From positions 96,001 through 160,000 of the forward strand of contig CAXXGO010000006.1 of NCBI GenBank assembly GCA_963666835.2: 64,000 nt of DNA, written 5' to 3'. A program made the translations under genes and the position numbers. Source of the stretch: Phycisphaerae bacterium. Lineage in GTDB: Bacteria > Planctomycetota > Phycisphaerae > UBA1845. Positions 56,451-64,000 of this stretch are shown here, in pieces. Below the pieces are notes generated by a model, which was given only the letters and a program-made list of their open reading frames with translations, made no database searches and had not been told where the DNA came from. Each line of letters begins with the position of its first letter. Within the stretch, counting starts at the first letter, position 1.

Positions 56451-56816
56451 AGGGTGCTTGGCCGGGTCCGCGCTCGGATTTTGCCTGTTGGCGAGGCAGC
56501 AGGGGGTTGCTTAGAAATCCGAAGGTCCGGGTCTGAGTCGGCGCAGTAGCGTTCTTCGGCGGCATACAGGGGGTCGTCGTAGGGCAAGGTAATGCGGCAA
56601 AGCGGGCGGGCAACCCACCGGGGCCGAAGTTGGGCACTACATCCCTGCTGCAGAATAGATCGGTGGATGTCGGGGTGTGAAGTGTCTTCCCGTTGTCATT
56701 CAGAGAATGTGCTATCGGGAAGTGCGTTCCGCGCCGGCGACCGGCGCCGGTATCGCCGACGATATCGGCGGGAAGAAAGGGACGACTCGAAACTGGATCG
56801 TATGGAGGATGTAGAA

Positions 56817-59800
56817 ATGCGTACCGCTACCGTTCTTGCGGTTGCACTTGTGCTGGGGCTGTTTCTGTCCACGGCTCGCGCGGAGCTGGCAACCCCGGAC
56901 GAGATGAAACTGGTATGTCAGAACTGGCTGACGTACATCGTGGACCAGACCGGAGATTGGGCCGGAGAACGCGAGCCCTGGATCGCCGACGTGCAGGAAG
57001 TGTACGCAGGCGACACCCTTGTGGCACATCATTTTGCCATCGGCCCGCAGGGGCATGTGGTCGTGCCGATTCTCAAGGAACTTCCCCCGATCCGGATGTA
57101 CTCGGACGAATCAAACCTGAACCTGGATGAAACCGACGGTCTGGCCCAGCTCTTGCGAGACGTAATGGAGCACCGCACAGGCTTGTACATCGAGAAGTAC
57201 GGCAGTCTTGAGGCGAAGCAACCGCGCGCCGGCGAGGTACTCCTCGGTCGCGCCCATCGCGACGAGTGGGACCGGTTCGCGATAGACCGTGACCAGTTCG
57301 CCGCGGAGTTGGATTCGCAAAGGGCCGACCCCATCGTCCAGCTCGGACCCTTGTTGACCACGGTTTGGGACCAGGGCCCTCCGTATAACAACCTCTGCCC
57401 GATTGGTGACGGCGGACGCACGGTAGTCGGCTGCGTGGCGACCGCCACGGCCCAGTTGATGGCTTACCACCAGTGGCCGCCCTCCGGTACCGGCGAGCAG
57501 ACGTACACCTGGAGCGGGGACGACTCTTGCGGCGGCAGCACGCCGAGCGAGAGTCTCTATGCCGATTTCTCCGACGAGTACGACTGGGACAACATTGTCG
57601 ACGAGTGTTTCTCCGGATGTGACGCCGCCCAGCAAGCCGCTCTGGCCGAGTTGAATTACGAGGTCGGGGTGGCTTTCTACATGGACTACGGAGTTTGCGG
57701 GTCCGGGGCTTACACTTCCAACGCTCGGCAGATAATGCCCGTGTTCTTCCGGTATGAGGACTCGCTGGACAGTGAATACCGCGACAACCACACGGCGCAG
57801 ACTTGGTACGATACGATCCGGGTTGAAATCAACGCCGCGCGGCCCATGTTGTACGGCATCTCCCGGCATGCCATCGTGTGTGACGGCTACCGCGACACCG
57901 GCGGGACGAACCAATACCACATGAACTACGGTTGGGGCGGCTCGCAGAACACGTGGTTTGCCATCGATGATTTGCATTGTACGTGGGAGGGGTGCCACTA
58001 CATGAACGAGAGCCTGATCCGACACATCATCCCGTTCAAGGACTGCAACGAAAACGATATTAACGATTATCTGGACATCGACGGGGGCACGAGCGAAGAC
58101 TGCAATTCGAACACGATCCCTGATGAGTGCGACCTCGAGAATGGAGATAGCGAGGACTGCAACGAAAACGACGTCCCCGACGAGTGCGATATTGCCAATA
58201 TGGTTAGCGAAGACTGTACCGGCAACGGCATTCCCGACGAGTGTGAACCGGACTGCAACACGAACGGGATCGCCGACAGTTGCGACATCGCGGGCTCCAC
58301 CAGCGAAGACTGCACCGGTAACGGGATCCCCGATGAGTGTGAACCGGACTGCAACACGAACGGGATCGCCGACAGTTGCGACATCGCGGGCTCCACCAGC
58401 GAAGACTGCACCGGCAACGGGATCCCCGATGAATGCGAGCCGGACTGCAATATGAACGAGGTTGCCGATAGTTGCGATATCGCAGGCGCGACCAGTGAAG
58501 ACTGCACCGGCAACGGGATCCCCGACGAATGCGACATCGCCGATTGCCCGACGGAAGATCTCTCCTGCCAGGACTGCAACGGAAACGAAGTGCCCGACGG
58601 CTGCGACCTGAGCGAAGGAACCAGCGCAGACTGTCAGGCAAACGGCATTCCGGATGAGTGCGATATCGTGGCGGGTACCAGCGGGGACTGCACCGCCGAT
58701 GGTGTACCGGACGAGTGCCAGGCAGACTGCAACGGAAACAGCATTGCCGATCTCTGCGACGTCGCCGGTTGGACGAGTGACGACGACAACGGCAACGGCG
58801 TGCCCGATGAATGCGAGGGGCCGAACTTCACGCTCATGCCTGTGGGTGCGTCGGGAACACACATGATCTTCTGGAACACAATCTACATTCCCGAAGGAGG
58901 AGGAACGGTTGAGCTGGAGCTGCAGCTCTCCAGGTGGGGAACCGCCCCCGGAGCTCCGGAATTAGCCGCCTATCAGGCTCAGGTCGACTCGACCGGATAC
59001 GGAAGCGGAAAAGGTGCCCCACTCGTGCCGGTCGGCTGGCCGTCCACGCCGGAAACCGGAGCGTTCATCGACTTGACCCGCGACGATTTCCCGTTCAAGG
59101 ACCTGACTCCACTCGCGGGAACGGACTTGACGTTGCTGGATTACGTGTGGGGATCCACAGCTCTCTACGGATCCCGCGCGGACGCGGGCGGAGCCAGTTA
59201 CGGAGGCACGTTGATTCTGGATATCCCGGCGGGAGCCGATGGTGAGTATTCGATCGGTCTCGTGGACAACGATGATATGACCTTCATGGACGACCCGGAC
59301 GTCCAACTGTTACCGGGCTTGGGGCTTCTGCCCGGGAGGATCATTGTCGGGGAGATGCCCATGGGTTGCTGTCTACCTGATGGCATCTGTGCTCCGGCTA
59401 CTCCGGAGGACTGTGCCAACGCCGGCGGTACTCCCGTCGAGCAATGTTTGGGCGATCCGGGGGGCAACGGTGTCGACGACGCCTGCGAGCAGGCGGGCCC
59501 CGAAGAACCACCCGCTCCCTACAACGTGCCGAAGAACCGCTACCTGTCCTTCGATCCCAACAACGGCGCTTTGAGCGTTGCCTTCCGTGTCGAATTGACC
59601 TCCAGCGTCTATTTCCCAGGATCTACCGGTGTGCTGGGTTGGGTAGGTGAGCCGGACGGAAACGGGATCGCCCGGGTCGAGGCGGATCCATATTACACGA
59701 GCGACTGGCCGGACGTGCTTCACGTGGCCGACTGCGAAATCGTGCCCGCCGCCGTCTACTCAGTATCTTCGACTGCGGACGGAGCGGAATTCTCTCTGGC

Positions 59801-60086
59801 GTTGGAGATCCCGACGACCACCCAGCCGGGCGTCAAGTTCTGGGCTGATATGGTCGGGCCGCTGGACGGCGAGGGCTGGACTCCACCCAACGGGGTCGTG
59901 AGTATGGACGACATCATGGCCGTGATCCAGGCGTTCCAGGCTTCCCCAACCGCGCCGCATCTGTCATGGGTTGACCTCGACGGTGAAGCACCGAACAAAG
60001 TGGCGAACATGACGGACATTCAGCAGGCGGTCAACGGGTTTAAGGGCTTCGCCTATCCGTTCAGCGACCCGGCGGCGTGTCCGTAG
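56817..60086 (+). CDS. Secreted C10 (streptopain-like) cysteine peptidase with Cys/Asp repeats, cohesin-like and dockerin-like domains
   Basis: GGAGG RBS, signal peptide and propeptide; WDQ, GCVATATAQ (Cys), HAIVCDGY (His), HMNYGWGG. Confidence 0.93.
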   Translation: MRTATVLAVALVLGLFLSTARAELATPDEMKLVCQNWLTYIVDQTGDWAGEREPWIADVQEVYAGDTLVAHHFAIGPQGHVVVPILKELPPIRMYSDESNLNLDETDGLAQLLRDVMEHRTGLYIEKYGSLEAKQPRAGEVLLGRAHRDEWDRFAIDRDQFAAELDSQRADPIVQLGPLLTTVWDQGPPYNNLCPIGDGGRTVVGCVATATAQLMAYHQWPPSGTGEQTYTWSGDDSCGGSTPSESLYADFSDEYDWDNIVDECFSGCDAAQQAALAELNYEVGVAFYMDYGVCGSGAYTSNARQIMPVFFRYEDSLDSEYRDNHTAQTWYDTIRVEINAARPMLYGISRHAIVCDGYRDTGGTNQYHMNYGWGGSQNTWFAIDDLHCTWEGCHYMNESLIRHIIPFKDCNENDINDYLDIDGGTSEDCNSNTIPDECDLENGDSEDCNENDVPDECDIANMVSEDCTGNGIPDECEPDCNTNGIADSCDIAGSTSEDCTGNGIPDECEPDCNTNGIADSCDIAGSTSEDCTGNGIPDECEPDCNMNEVADSCDIAGATSEDCTGNGIPDECDIADCPTEDLSCQDCNGNEVPDGCDLSEGTSADCQANGIPDECDIVAGTSGDCTADGVPDECQADCNGNSIADLCDVAGWTSDDDNGNGVPDECEGPNFTLMPVGASGTHMIFWNTIYIPEGGGTVELELQLSRWGTAPGAPELAAYQAQVDSTGYGSGKGAPLVPVGWPSTPETGAFIDLTRDDFPFKDLTPLAGTDLTLLDYVWGSTALYGSRADAGGASYGGTLILDIPAGADGEYSIGLVDNDDMTFMDDPDVQLLPGLGLLPGRIIVGEMPMGCCLPDGICAPATPEDCANAGGTPVEQCLGDPGGNGVDDACEQAGPEEPPAPYNVPKNRYLSFDPNNGALSVAFRVELTSSVYFPGSTGVLGWVGEPDGNGIARVEADPYYTSDWPDVLHVADCEIVPAAVYSVSSTADGAEFSLALEIPTTTQPGVKFWADMVGPLDGEGWTPPNGVVSMDDIMAVIQAFQASPTAPHLSWVDLDGEAPNKVANMTDIQQAVNGFKGFAYPFSDPAACP
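58206..58535 (+). repeat. Intragenic 96-bp tandem repeat (32-aa SEDCTGNGIPDECEPDCNTNGIADSCDIAGST unit)
   Basis: Unit starts at 58206, 58302, 58398 and 58494; the first two are nearly identical at nucleotide level. Confidence 0.92.
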
Positions 60087-60897: not shown

Positions 60898-62205
60898 ATG
60901 GGAAGACTGGTGCAGAAGAAGTTAGGCGGAACTCTGGTCAGTGGGTTCTCGCTGGCCGGAGAAGAGAGCGTGGTCGCGGCTCCGGAGTACAACGTCTGTT
61001 TTGACATCGGACGGGCTCCGCGAGAGGTGATCTCTATCGACAATGTGTGCCTGACCCACGGCCACATGGATCATGCGGCAGGCGTTGCGTATTATTTTTC
61101 ACAACGGTGCTTTATTGGCAATTCGCCCGGGCGGGTCATTGTTCACCGAAGTCTGGCGCAGTCCATCCAGAAGCTCATGGACGTTTGGGCGGACATCGAG
61201 GGGCACCCGTCAGCCGGACAGGTGTACGGCGTAGAGCATCTCGAGGATGTTCCGATTCGCCGGGGGCTCATCGTTCGTCCTTTCACGGTCAACCACACTG
61301 GCAGTTCGCTCGGCTTCACGATAGTCGACGTGCGGCATCGGCTGAAAGAGGAACTCCAGGGCAAGCTGGGGCCGGAACTGGTTGCCCTCAAAAAACAGGG
61401 GGTCGAGATCGAGGACCACGTGGAGATCCCGGTGCTTACATACCCGGGTGATACCGCCCCCGGGCGATTCCTGGATCTGGATTTCGTGCGGAAAAGTCGC
61501 GCCGTGTTACTGGAATGTACCTTCTTCGAGGACGACCACCGTGTCCGCGCTCAAGCCGGCCGGCACATTCACGTGGATCAACTACCCCGAGTCCTCGCGG
61601 CCGTCCCTGACGCGGAGGTGATGCTCATCCATCTCACGAGAAGAACCGACCTCCGGGCGGCCAAGCATCAGCTTCGGTCCGTCCTTACGCCCAGCGATCT
61701 TGAACGAGTAAGCTTCCTGATGGACCGACCGAGGCGCCTGCCTCCGGGTCACCGACCGGATGGTGTCGAGACATTGAATGCGAAAACGCCCCATGCCGCC
61801 TCGCGGGGGATAATTTACAGCAAGAATGCTAACATTGTTGAGATATTTGCCCGTACCGGGACGGCTGCGAAGCGGTCGCCCATGCCACGCAGGCCACCGA
61901 AGACAAAAAACCTGGCGGTTATAGGGTTGCGGTCGGTTGGGGAACGTAGTAAAAGACCCCGCTTCTGGAGCGGATGGATGTACGCACGCAAGGCGCGTAG
62001 CTTCGTTGCCCTGTTGGCGTTTGTCGATCCCGCATGGAAGAGGTGGTTCGGCGAGTGTTCCTTGGCGCGGATCGCTCGGGTGTTTGTCAGGCCGAGCCAC
62101 CAGTTGGGGAGTGTTGCGAACGGGGCGGAAGCGTTCAGCGCAGACGCCTGGAGAAGTGCTTACTACGTCTACTTTCGCGAATGCCCTTCCGGCGCGGGGG
62201 GGTGA
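60898..62205 (+). CDS. Metallo-beta-lactamase fold hydrolase (RNase Z-like); homologous-looking part ends near 61750
   Basis: THGHMDH, VNH, YPGDT, ECTF, HIH, LIH motifs. The last ~150 codons look like non-coding read-through. Confidence 0.8.
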   Translation: MGRLVQKKLGGTLVSGFSLAGEESVVAAPEYNVCFDIGRAPREVISIDNVCLTHGHMDHAAGVAYYFSQRCFIGNSPGRVIVHRSLAQSIQKLMDVWADIEGHPSAGQVYGVEHLEDVPIRRGLIVRPFTVNHTGSSLGFTIVDVRHRLKEELQGKLGPELVALKKQGVEIEDHVEIPVLTYPGDTAPGRFLDLDFVRKSRAVLLECTFFEDDHRVRAQAGRHIHVDQLPRVLAAVPDAEVMLIHLTRRTDLRAAKHQLRSVLTPSDLERVSFLMDRPRRLPPGHRPDGVETLNAKTPHAASRGIIYSKNANIVEIFARTGTAAKRSPMPRRPPKTKNLAVIGLRSVGERSKRPRFWSGWMYARKARSFVALLAFVDPAWKRWFGECSLARIARVFVRPSHQLGSVANGAEAFSADAWRSAYYVYFRECPSGAGG

Positions 62206-62242
62206 AGCGTTGTGTTCAGTTTCTGAAGAGAAAGGGATCGAT

Positions 62243-62323
62243 ATGAGTTGGTGGTGGTGGATTGGTATTGCCGGTGTGGTTGCGTATTTCCTCTTCTACG
62301 GCATGGGAACCACGACAGCGTAA
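62243..62323 (+). CDS. 26-aa Trp-rich hydrophobic peptide 1 (MSWWWWIGIAGVVAYFLFYGMGTTTA)
   Basis: RBS-like AAAGGG 6 nt before ATG; paralog 239 nt downstream with the same length and frame. Confidence 0.8.
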   Translation: MSWWWWIGIAGVVAYFLFYGMGTTTA

Positions 62324-62481
62324 GTGCCAACCGGGGGCTTCTCCGGTGGATGATTGAGAACAAGGGCAGCTGAGCAGTCTGTGCTCGGTTGCGGTCGGAG
62401 TCTGTTGGAGAACGCGGTCGTCCGCCAATGCCGGCGGGTCGTCTGCGAATATCTCCCTTTTTTATGACGAAAGGAATCGAT

Positions 62482-62562
62482 ATGACTTGGTGGTGGTGGA
62501 TTGCTATTGCTGGTGTGGTTGGATATCTGCTGTACTCGGGGATGTTCACCACGACAGCGTAA
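62482..62562 (+). CDS. 26-aa Trp-rich hydrophobic peptide 2 (MTWWWWIAIAGVVGYLLYSGMFTTTA)
   Basis: RBS AAAGGA; differs from peptide 1 largely by conservative changes with no indels; homology is confined to RBS through stop. Confidence 0.8.
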   Translation: MTWWWWIAIAGVVGYLLYSGMFTTTA

Positions 62563-62599
62563 ACGCAGCCCGGACCTTGAAGTTCGGACAGACGTTGAG

Positions 62600-62658
62600 A
62601 AACAACACGGCGAGGGACACGCTGGTCGACCAGGGTGTTTCACTCGCCGTGTTTTTTT
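62600..62658 (+). terminator. Long hairpin plus U-tract terminator after the peptide pair
   Basis: AACACGGCGAG-GGACAC-GCTGGTCGACCAG-GGTGTTTC-A-CTCGCCGTGTT followed by a T run; A-rich 5' side, so possibly bidirectional. Confidence 0.8.
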
Positions 62659-63051
62659 CATGGTCGAGGCGCGAGACCTGCCGCGTCCTTTGCGTGATGC
62701 GCGCAGCAGTGTGTTCGCGCGATGACGCACTCCCGGGCGGTCGCGATGCGGGCACAGGCCCTCAATCGCAAATGCCCGGGAAGCCGTTGGGTGTGGTCGA
62801 GGAACGAGACTGGCCGTAGTCTTTGTGTGATCCCGGTAGCCGTCCGTCGGATCTTCGGGACGGATCACGGGCCGGCAACATGGCAGCGGGCGAGGTGGAT
62901 CGTGCTCTTGCGTACCCCTGCGGCGGACCGTACACTTTGTGGTTTGCGCTTTGCAGCGGACGGCATACCCGATAGTCTCAGGTAATGGGGCTGTAGCGGC
63001 GCGGCCTACCGGCGACATGGGGGCGACCGGCGACAGCAACCAGTTAAGAAG

Positions 63052-64000
63052 GTGGTACAAGACGCGATGACGGCGGAAGCGATTCGGGAGCAGGTCAAGG
63101 CGGGACGGTTTGACGAAGCTCGGCAGGCTCTTGAGGCCATGGGCGAGACTGACGAGAACCGGACTGAGCGATTGTTTCTGCAGGGACGGGTACAGGAAGG
63201 CGAGTATGATCGTAGTGGGGCTCTAGCCACGTACGAAGAGGTGTTGAACCTGGATTCGGAGCACAAGGAAGCCCGTTTTCGGGCCGCGTTGCTTGCAGAC
63301 CTTCTCGGCGACGACGACCGGGCGATCGAGCTCTACGAACGGTGTGTGTCGGACGATTCGGTGCCGGTCAACGCGTTGATCAACCTGGCGGTTCTCTACG
63401 AGGAGAACGGGCAGCTTGGCGACGCGGAGTGGTGCCTCAAGAGCGTGCTGACGACCTACCCAAACCACCGCCGGGCGCGGCATTTTCTCAGTTCCGTCGA
63501 GAGCACCTACACGATGGTGTACGACGAGAAGAGCGTTCGCGATCGCGAGCACCGGTTCGCGGTGATGGACACACCGGTCACCGATTTCGAGTTGAGCGTT
63601 CGCAGCCGCAACTGTCTCAGGCAGATGAACATCCGGACCCTTGGCGATCTGCTCAGAACCACGGAAGCGGAGTTGCTTTCTTACAAGAACTTCGGGGACA
63701 CGTCGCTCAACGAGATCCAGGCGATGTTGCGCCAGAAAGGTTTGCGGTTGGGGCAGGCGATCTCGCCGCTGGACGGCGAGGGCGGTCCGTTCGGGGGGGC
63801 GATTGATCCGATCGGCGCCTCGGCGAACCCTCACTTGAGCAGGCCGGTCTCCGAACTCGAACTTTCCGTACGCTCCCGAAAATGCCTGCAAGCTCTGGGC
63901 ATAACGACCATCGGCGAGTTGATGAAGCGAAGCGAGACCGAGCTGATGGCCTCTAAGAACTTCGGGCAAACGTCACTGGCGGAGATCAAACATCAGCTTT
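63052..64000 (+). CDS. TPR-repeat protein with two RNA polymerase alpha C-terminal domains (3' truncated by window end)
   Basis: Hand translation (absent from the ORF track): TPR-like helices, then TPVTDFELSVRSRNCLRQMNIRTLGDL...KNFGDTSLNEI and RPVSELELSVRSRKCL...KNFGQTSLAEI. Start GTG 63052 or ATG 63067. Confidence 0.92.
   Translation, partial: MVQDAMTAEAIREQVKAGRFDEARQALEAMGETDENRTERLFLQGRVQEGEYDRSGALATYEEVLNLDSEHKEARFRAALLADLLGDDDRAIELYERCVSDDSVPVNALINLAVLYEENGQLGDAEWCLKSVLTTYPNHRRARHFLSSVESTYTMVYDEKSVRDREHRFAVMDTPVTDFELSVRSRNCLRQMNIRTLGDLLRTTEAELLSYKNFGDTSLNEIQAMLRQKGLRLGQAISPLDGEGGPFGGAIDPIGASANPHLSRPVSELELSVRSRKCLQALGITTIGELMKRSETELMASKNFGQTSLAEIKHQL

Follow-up and report, generated by a model that had tools for sequence, protein, structure and literature searches.

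A tandem pair of 26-residue membrane-type peptide genes in a Phycisphaerae bacterium belongs to an undescribed family with a covarying 5' RNA hairpin

The DNA analyzed in this study, a window of 64,000 nucleotides of the forward strand from a Phycisphaerae bacterium (assembly GCA_963666835.2, contig CAXXGO010000006.1, positions 96,001 to 160,000), carries two short open reading frames on the + strand, each encoding an uncharged, Trp-rich peptide of 26 aa with a single predicted helix. ORF 1 lies at 62243..62323 and its paralogue ORF 2, which is 73% identical to it, at 62482..62562; both are supported by sequence, translation and membership of the family described below. A preliminary description of this DNA had given both reading frames, with the same positions and translations, together with ribosome-binding sites and a terminator hairpin, and all of these were found. 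Its observation that the similarity of the two copies ends at the stop codon also holds, since the copies share 66/81 positions over the ORF plus stop and 12/13 over the ribosome-binding block, compared with 16/40 just before that block and 14/40 just after the stop. WWWW, of which the 6.0-Mb genome contains only six instances over its six reading frames, and TTTA had been called invariant; this is correct within the pair and not in the family, in which WWWW is present in 5/61 members and a terminal TTTA only in these 2/61. The further statement that the changes are mostly conservative was too generous, as 7 of the 10 codons that differ are non-synonymous and two of the replacements (Y>S and G>F) are not conservative. 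Calculated per site (pS 0.40, pN 0.14), the comparison of the two copies leans toward purifying selection, the firm evidence coming from the relatives. DNA contigs from public runs span both ORFs without substitutions, the deepest run being possibly the source of this assembly, and one public contig lacks one base inside ORF 2 at a depth of 4.4, at which an error is possible.

Each ORF is preceded by a Shine-Dalgarno block visible in the sequence (62230..62242 for copy 1 and 62469..62481 for copy 2, both +), with opening energies of 11.3 and 9.6 kcal/mol, respectively, against a control median of 11.8 kcal/mol. Across the family, 56 local folds and 54 longer folds were compared with 150 control genes, and the ribosome-binding sites of members were no harder to open than those of the controls (10.3 vs 11.8 kcal/mol), with no sequestration in either the local or the longer transcript folds. 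An anti-Shine-Dalgarno hairpin that appeared conserved by eye was discarded, because members were no more occluded than controls. Upstream of the pair, the -10-like hexamer TACTTT (62170..62175, +) marks a candidate sigma-70-type promoter that is weak in its own genome, the best upstream site scoring 7.0, under the 95th percentile of random windows (8.7); sense promoters of this type at the corresponding position exceeded the random 95th percentile in 26/40 family loci. Just 3' of the ORF 2 stop, a small hairpin was predicted by folding (62569..62587, +), and several relatives have a similar one before a long 3' hairpin. The long hairpin of this locus (62600..62657, +), an inverted repeat with 21-nt arms, a U-run and a fold z of -5.76, is likely the intrinsic terminator and agrees with the strong terminator described earlier after ORF 2. 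Terminator-like sites were found downstream of 33/56 members compared with 38/500 control genes.

The peptide pair is flanked by a gene for a metallo-beta-lactamase-fold protein and by a gene combining TPR repeats with RNA-polymerase alpha C-terminal domains. The former ORF (60898-62205, 435 aa) overlaps the peptide promoter and the 5' hairpin. Its long tail may be an assembly error: in the deepest public contig a base is missing at 61804, which would end the gene near 61813, and the other runs break at that place. The latter (63067-64000) consists of TPR repeats followed by two alpha C-terminal domains and has homologues in most genomes of the order that were searched. Right 3' of the terminator lie two copies of a REP-like repeat of about 50 nt (62659-62710 and 62794-62843), which gave 211 BLAST matches in the own genome and is present on many other contigs of the public runs. 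Farther upstream, 56592-60086 encodes a secreted-type protein of 1,164 aa in which a peptidase C10 domain is combined with Cys/Asp-rich repeats.

A conserved hairpin in the 5' UTR (62183..62203, +), overlooked in the preliminary description, exposes the loop GGCGC at 62191-62195 and was supported by covariation, motif, a covariance model and folds. The motif, a hairpin with the loop RGCGY about 50 nt before the start codon, was identified in 37/61 members; when the best hairpin was chosen blind to sequence, the loop was GGCGC in 29/61, compared with about 0.001 per window in the genome. Across 25 motif-bearing sequences, 85% of the cells pair, double changes were observed in 7/9 pairs, and the covariation score was 0.575 against 0.16-0.22 for slid partners. 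A conserved loop on variable but paired arms suggests an RNA structure rather than a DNA operator. In 31 loci chosen for having a -10 element, from which the transcript start was inferred, the hairpin opens within 3 nt of that start in 26, compared with 41-45% of controls, and the hairpin at 62183-62203 is predicted to start at the transcript's 5' end. Between the two ORFs, a folded hairpin with the loop AAUGCC (62419..62441, +) occupies the equivalent position. The GGCGC loop is often missing from the downstream copies of an array, and of the 23 members without the motif among the first 56, 9 are such copies, which is consistent with co-transcription.

When 101 genomes were searched with a covariance model built on nothing but the hairpin, 14 new matches were inspected; three of them (ranks 1, 2 and 5) lie in front of new peptides of the family and 11 do not, and the hairpin is therefore an independent handle for finding such peptide genes. 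The best match of this model in the own genome is the copy at 62183-62203. A role as a regulon element was set aside, since only the copy in the window scores in the own genome and the next five matches precede no peptide. Two further candidates were not used. The complement of the loop, GCGCC, occurs in 11/52 tRNA/tmRNA genes, mostly at paired or non-loop positions as judged by eye. Arms of the form CGGCG...CGCC[GA], through which the loop might pair with the terminator, were found in 18/54 members against a background of 10.5%, and at terminator-like sites in 8/33 against 3/38, a modest enrichment among genomes that are kin.

Iterated HMM searches defined a family with 61 members, all ORFs of 19-36 aa, from 44 genomes that belong to a single order of Phycisphaerae. 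The members were picked by hand from weak HMM matches and had to combine a short ORF, a Shine-Dalgarno sequence and an apolar core; matches inside long proteins were left out, as were four short basic-tailed ORFs (L007, L565, L127 and L128). The own family of the bacterium (f1) contributed 39 members in 34/101 genomes, family f6 21 members in 9/72 genomes, and a third family of the order one member. No member was found outside the order in a class sample of 401 genomes, in which 21 weak-match loci were inspected, or in a phylum sample of 401 genomes, in which 5 weak matches were inspected. Pattern scans yielded one true member among the 117 matches listed for genomes, one among the 120 listed for metagenomes, and none among 65 matching loci on viral contigs. 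Nine genomes carry 2-4 copies, often in tandem arrays.

The alignments show a common pattern of W-x-W, an apolar core and a neutral tail. Counted over all members, W accounts for 202 and K plus R for 6 of 1,626 residues; 55/61 members have neither K nor R and 36/61 have no charged residue, figures that are partly selected because of the hand picking, the HMMs and filters, and the dropping of the four basic-tailed ORFs. The number of Trp per member ranges from 1 to 6, with the cluster at the peptide start. The longest apolar run, counting W and G as apolar, is 15-18 residues in 47/61 members, and a run of at least 15, long enough to span the membrane, is present in 54/61. AlphaFold predicted one helix for a 31-aa member (residues 7-25, pLDDT 82). 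As the positive-inside rule governs the topology of membrane proteins, these nearly basic-free peptides offer an unusual test case for topology without that rule.

Selection on the peptide, which had been claimed from the copies alone, was checked by dN/dS. In four orthologous pairs between genomes G088 and G090, there were 17 synonymous and 2 non-synonymous changes, and the pooled dN/dS over 18 hand-chosen, non-independent pairs was 0.34; the family is under purifying selection. Uracil is in excess at four-fold sites of members (124/503, compared with 517/4,515 in neighbouring genes), being higher in 23/26 genomes and also above N-terminal (0.17) and membrane-segment (0.135) controls. As uracil content is linked to the membrane targeting of mRNA in the accessible text of PMC12648545, this excess is a lead in that direction only.

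The preliminary description recognized no family, in agreement with our searches of Pfam, NCBIfam, PHROGs, PADLOC, PDB and Rfam, which gave no significant match; the best E value in the PDB sequence search was 2.6, and Rfam gave no match at the gathering score for the window stretch and 12 member loci. A search of 1.84 billion proteins returned three matches, two of them repeat artefacts and one a true, unnamed member. Of ten sequences looked up in a collection of 15 billion, four were present, none of them named, and the two of the window were absent. The best ESM Atlas score, 0.78, belonged to a hypothetical protein, and Foldseek gave no match. No published description of the family was found in the literature covered, which excludes subscription journals, and the sORFdb and GMSC catalogues may hold unnamed clusters. 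These data demonstrate a real and undescribed family of small peptides of the membrane type, which are under selection and accompanied by a new 5' RNA element that covaries. The finding adds both an unannotated protein family and an RNA motif to a lineage on whose small proteome our literature searches returned nothing.

The own genome (G000) contains two further unlinked ORFs of the membrane type, uncharged, of 28-29 aa and with a strong Shine-Dalgarno sequence. One of them (C3:241976, L570) is preceded at the equivalent position by a hairpin with the loop GGUGC, and in its G183 homologue this loop is GGCGC. The other (C1:744141, L571) represents a subfamily found in 11/101 genomes, 10 besides the own one, G026 having two copies. 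Its peptides begin with W-x-W and often end in an FP-Thr tail, and its hairpin loops are different. Both are likely sister subfamilies. Short membrane-type ORFs with a Shine-Dalgarno sequence and basic residues at L007:1560(-), L565:1584(-), L127:984(-) and L128:1053(-) were treated as separate families, L127 and L128 having their own upstream hairpin. A hydrophobic, uncharged ORF of 25 aa with a strong Shine-Dalgarno sequence, 1.3 kb downstream of the G192 member (L055:2791-2865), is a possible remote relative.

Concerning function, small single-helix membrane proteins such as AcrZ, MgtS, KdpF, CydX and CcoQ modulate or stabilize complexes. Like proteins of that kind, the members are shorter than 50 aa and have a ribosome-binding site, purifying selection on the peptide and one predicted spanning helix. 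Modulation of membrane complexes is a frequent role among the known small membrane proteins (PMC12648545). We tentatively favour, at somewhat below even confidence, the reading that the family peptides, each a single helix made from a stand-alone, stable mRNA, assist or regulate a membrane complex whose genes lie elsewhere. The preliminary description had offered type I toxin-like or regulatory single-pass membrane peptides, and it is the regulatory part of this suggestion that agrees best with our data. The locus reads as a self-contained, translatable and stable mRNA that is not silenced, which favours an accessory or regulatory partner. In this mechanism, a housekeeping promoter would make a short stand-alone mRNA, carrying two genes here; the hairpin at its 5' end would stabilize it, as 5' structure is described to do in the accessible part of PMC3997798, while the conserved loop may be read by a protein or an RNA; and the open Shine-Dalgarno sites would permit translation. 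The peptide would then insert with its Trp cluster at one interface and its neutral Thr/Ser/Gly/Ala tail at the other. Having no catalytic or charged residues, it could act only by packing on helices or lipid, and the paralogues might tune one complex or serve several. Against this reading, the own promoter is weak, the codon use of members shows no likeness to highly expressed genes, and the occurrence in 34/101 and 9/72 genomes is patchy for a core subunit, although the sensitivity of HMMs is low on 26 residues. The nearest genes, scanned as one on each side (64 neighbour ORFs), vary widely and thus provide no guilt by association for a partner complex; metG recurs on the downstream side at three scanned f6 loci and DUF362 in three genomes, and there is synteny within genera.

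The favoured role of a partner has to be weighed against several others, one of which, unlikely in our judgement, is that the peptides associate with themselves as structural or bilayer-modifying elements (patches, control of thickness or curvature, or a pilin-like polymer) in which paralogues co-assemble. The tandem arrays of up to four copies, the sister subfamilies in the same genomes, the stand-alone units comprising a promoter, a 5' hairpin and a terminator, the small-xxx-small spacing in 34/61 members and the lack of a linked partner gene would all suit such an assembly; however, strict GxxxG occurs in only 3/61, the alignments contain no leader or prepilin-type cleavage segment, codon use again gives no sign of high expression, and assembly genes do not recur nearby, one pilM being seen among the 64 ORFs. 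The data do not tell partner binding apart from self-association in the bilayer. A link to TatA, the top weak match of the family (6/38 members in NCBIfam, best E 0.024; 2/38 in Pfam, E 0.014), would give the peptides a more specific role, in which helices derived from or mimicking that of TatA, without its amphipathic helix, are incorporated into Tat translocons and dampen transport or the leak of protons, a reading we consider rather unlikely. The scores are far below the curated cut-offs of Pfam (PF02416) and NCBIfam (TIGR01411) for TatA/B/E membership, while the profile-profile comparison with TatA reached 92% over 19 columns, and the family profile repeatedly picked TatA genes in f6 genomes. 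When TatA helices were ranked among the own genome's membrane segments, three from f6 that had been identified independently by way of Pfam took places 4, 6 and 8 of 3,191 scored segments. W-H-W is retained in three members, and one member has an end that resembles the TatA hinge. In E. coli, TatA variants that are inactive have a dominant-negative effect (PMC9424591). This likeness is nevertheless limited to TatA of the f6 type, as f1 TatA ranks 52-1008 and the own TatA of this genome 377; with the smallest profile, of 7 sequences, the independent f6 TatAs drop to ranks 66-152, the f1 peptides do not track f1 TatA, no tat gene was found among the 64 neighbours scanned, and the apolar run and polar position differ as detailed below. 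The polar position is His in f6 TatA and Glu in f1 TatA (L521-L524 compared with L516-L520), and in G088, a genome 93% complete, TatC was found with no TatA match. On these sequence comparisons, the peptides might descend from or mimic an H-type TatA helix. The fuller proposal, of a TatA-derived, helix-only repertoire under GGCGC-loop RNA control that would tune, in a dose-dependent manner, either the Tat translocon or the weakening of the membrane caused by it, is given equally little confidence; if the TatA link were true, Tat export would have a natural regulator in this family.

As a type I toxin, the peptide would depolarize the membrane and be checked by an antisense RNA pairing with the GGCGC loop, an improbable reading in spite of the fitting size, hydrophobicity and tandem duplication and of an exposed, conserved loop that could seed RNA pairing. 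According to the accessible text of PMC8309996, IbsC, ShoB and DinQ have no basic C-termini, and ZorO was found by a search for tandem small hydrophobic proteins. The predictions, in which an antitoxin was sought opposite or beside the gene and behind a sigma-70 promoter, point the other way: antisense promoter scores were at background (2/40 and 1/40 loci, compared with 26/40 for the sense strand), no complement of the UTR within 400 nt exceeded the controls in 32 loci, the ribosome-binding site was not occluded, and none of the 65 pattern matches on viral contigs was a member, so that this part of the earlier suggestion was not supported. The RNA itself might instead be the main actor, as a dual-function sRNA whose loop would form a kissing contact, through its GYGY, with a second copy or with a fixed partner RNA, the peptide serving to tether or stabilize the transcript. 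The loop is indeed conserved while the stems covary, loop positions 3 and 5, where they vary, carry C or U, which would keep self-pairing possible, and a divergent peptide subfamily is preceded by the same hairpin. We regard this as quite improbable, because 24/61 members keep the peptide without the motif, the loops of a sister subfamily differ, purifying selection acts on the peptide itself, and the wobble pattern comes from a handful of variants that an intra-loop G-Y pair fits too. Two remaining suggestions of the preliminary description found little in their favour. A secreted or modified peptide (RiPP) precursor, processed in trans by enzymes encoded elsewhere, agrees with short, stand-alone, multi-copy genes and with at least two Thr/Ser among the last six residues in 26/61 members; it is very improbable given that no leader/core boundary is conserved, Cys occurs in 1/61 members, and no modifying, processing or export gene recurs among the 64 nearest neighbours. 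A Trp-sensing leader peptide controlling the terminator, for which the richness in Trp and the terminator downstream would speak, is scarcely credible: the Trp count varies and the residues cluster at the start, the downstream gene is convergent in 20/40 loci, no Trp-biosynthesis family was named among the 64 neighbours (one divergent Trp-catabolic dioxygenase was seen), and about 330 nt separate the Trp codons of copy 1 from the terminator.

Compared with known systems, the family resembles the toxins IbsC, ShoB, ZorO and DinQ, which in the accessible text of PMC8309996 are hydrophobic, of 19-29 aa, in tandem copies and with a structured 5' UTR; it differs from them in its open ribosome-binding site, with neither an antisense signal nor a sequence match. 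With TatA and TatE, it shares a W-x-W followed by an apolar helix, 19 columns of which align with f6 TatA, and it has little likeness to the own TatA of this genome. The amphipathic helix is essential for TatA (PMC13673990, accessible text), and the 12 consecutive hydrophobic residues of its membrane helix are strictly conserved (PMC9424591, accessible text). The peptides stop a few residues past the helix, with neither amphipathic helix nor hinge, their apolar run is mostly 15-18 residues instead of 12, and the polar residue is mostly lost; since the amphipathic helix and the 12-residue helix are both absent, they are not members of TatA. The family also resembles the class of AcrZ, MgtS, KdpF, CydX and CcoQ, with which the family has in common a length below 50 aa, one predicted membrane helix, no catalytic residues and genes missed by gene callers. 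It has no sequence match to that class and is set apart from it by the near absence of basic residues, the Trp cluster at the start, the multi-copy arrays and a dedicated, covarying 5' RNA motif.
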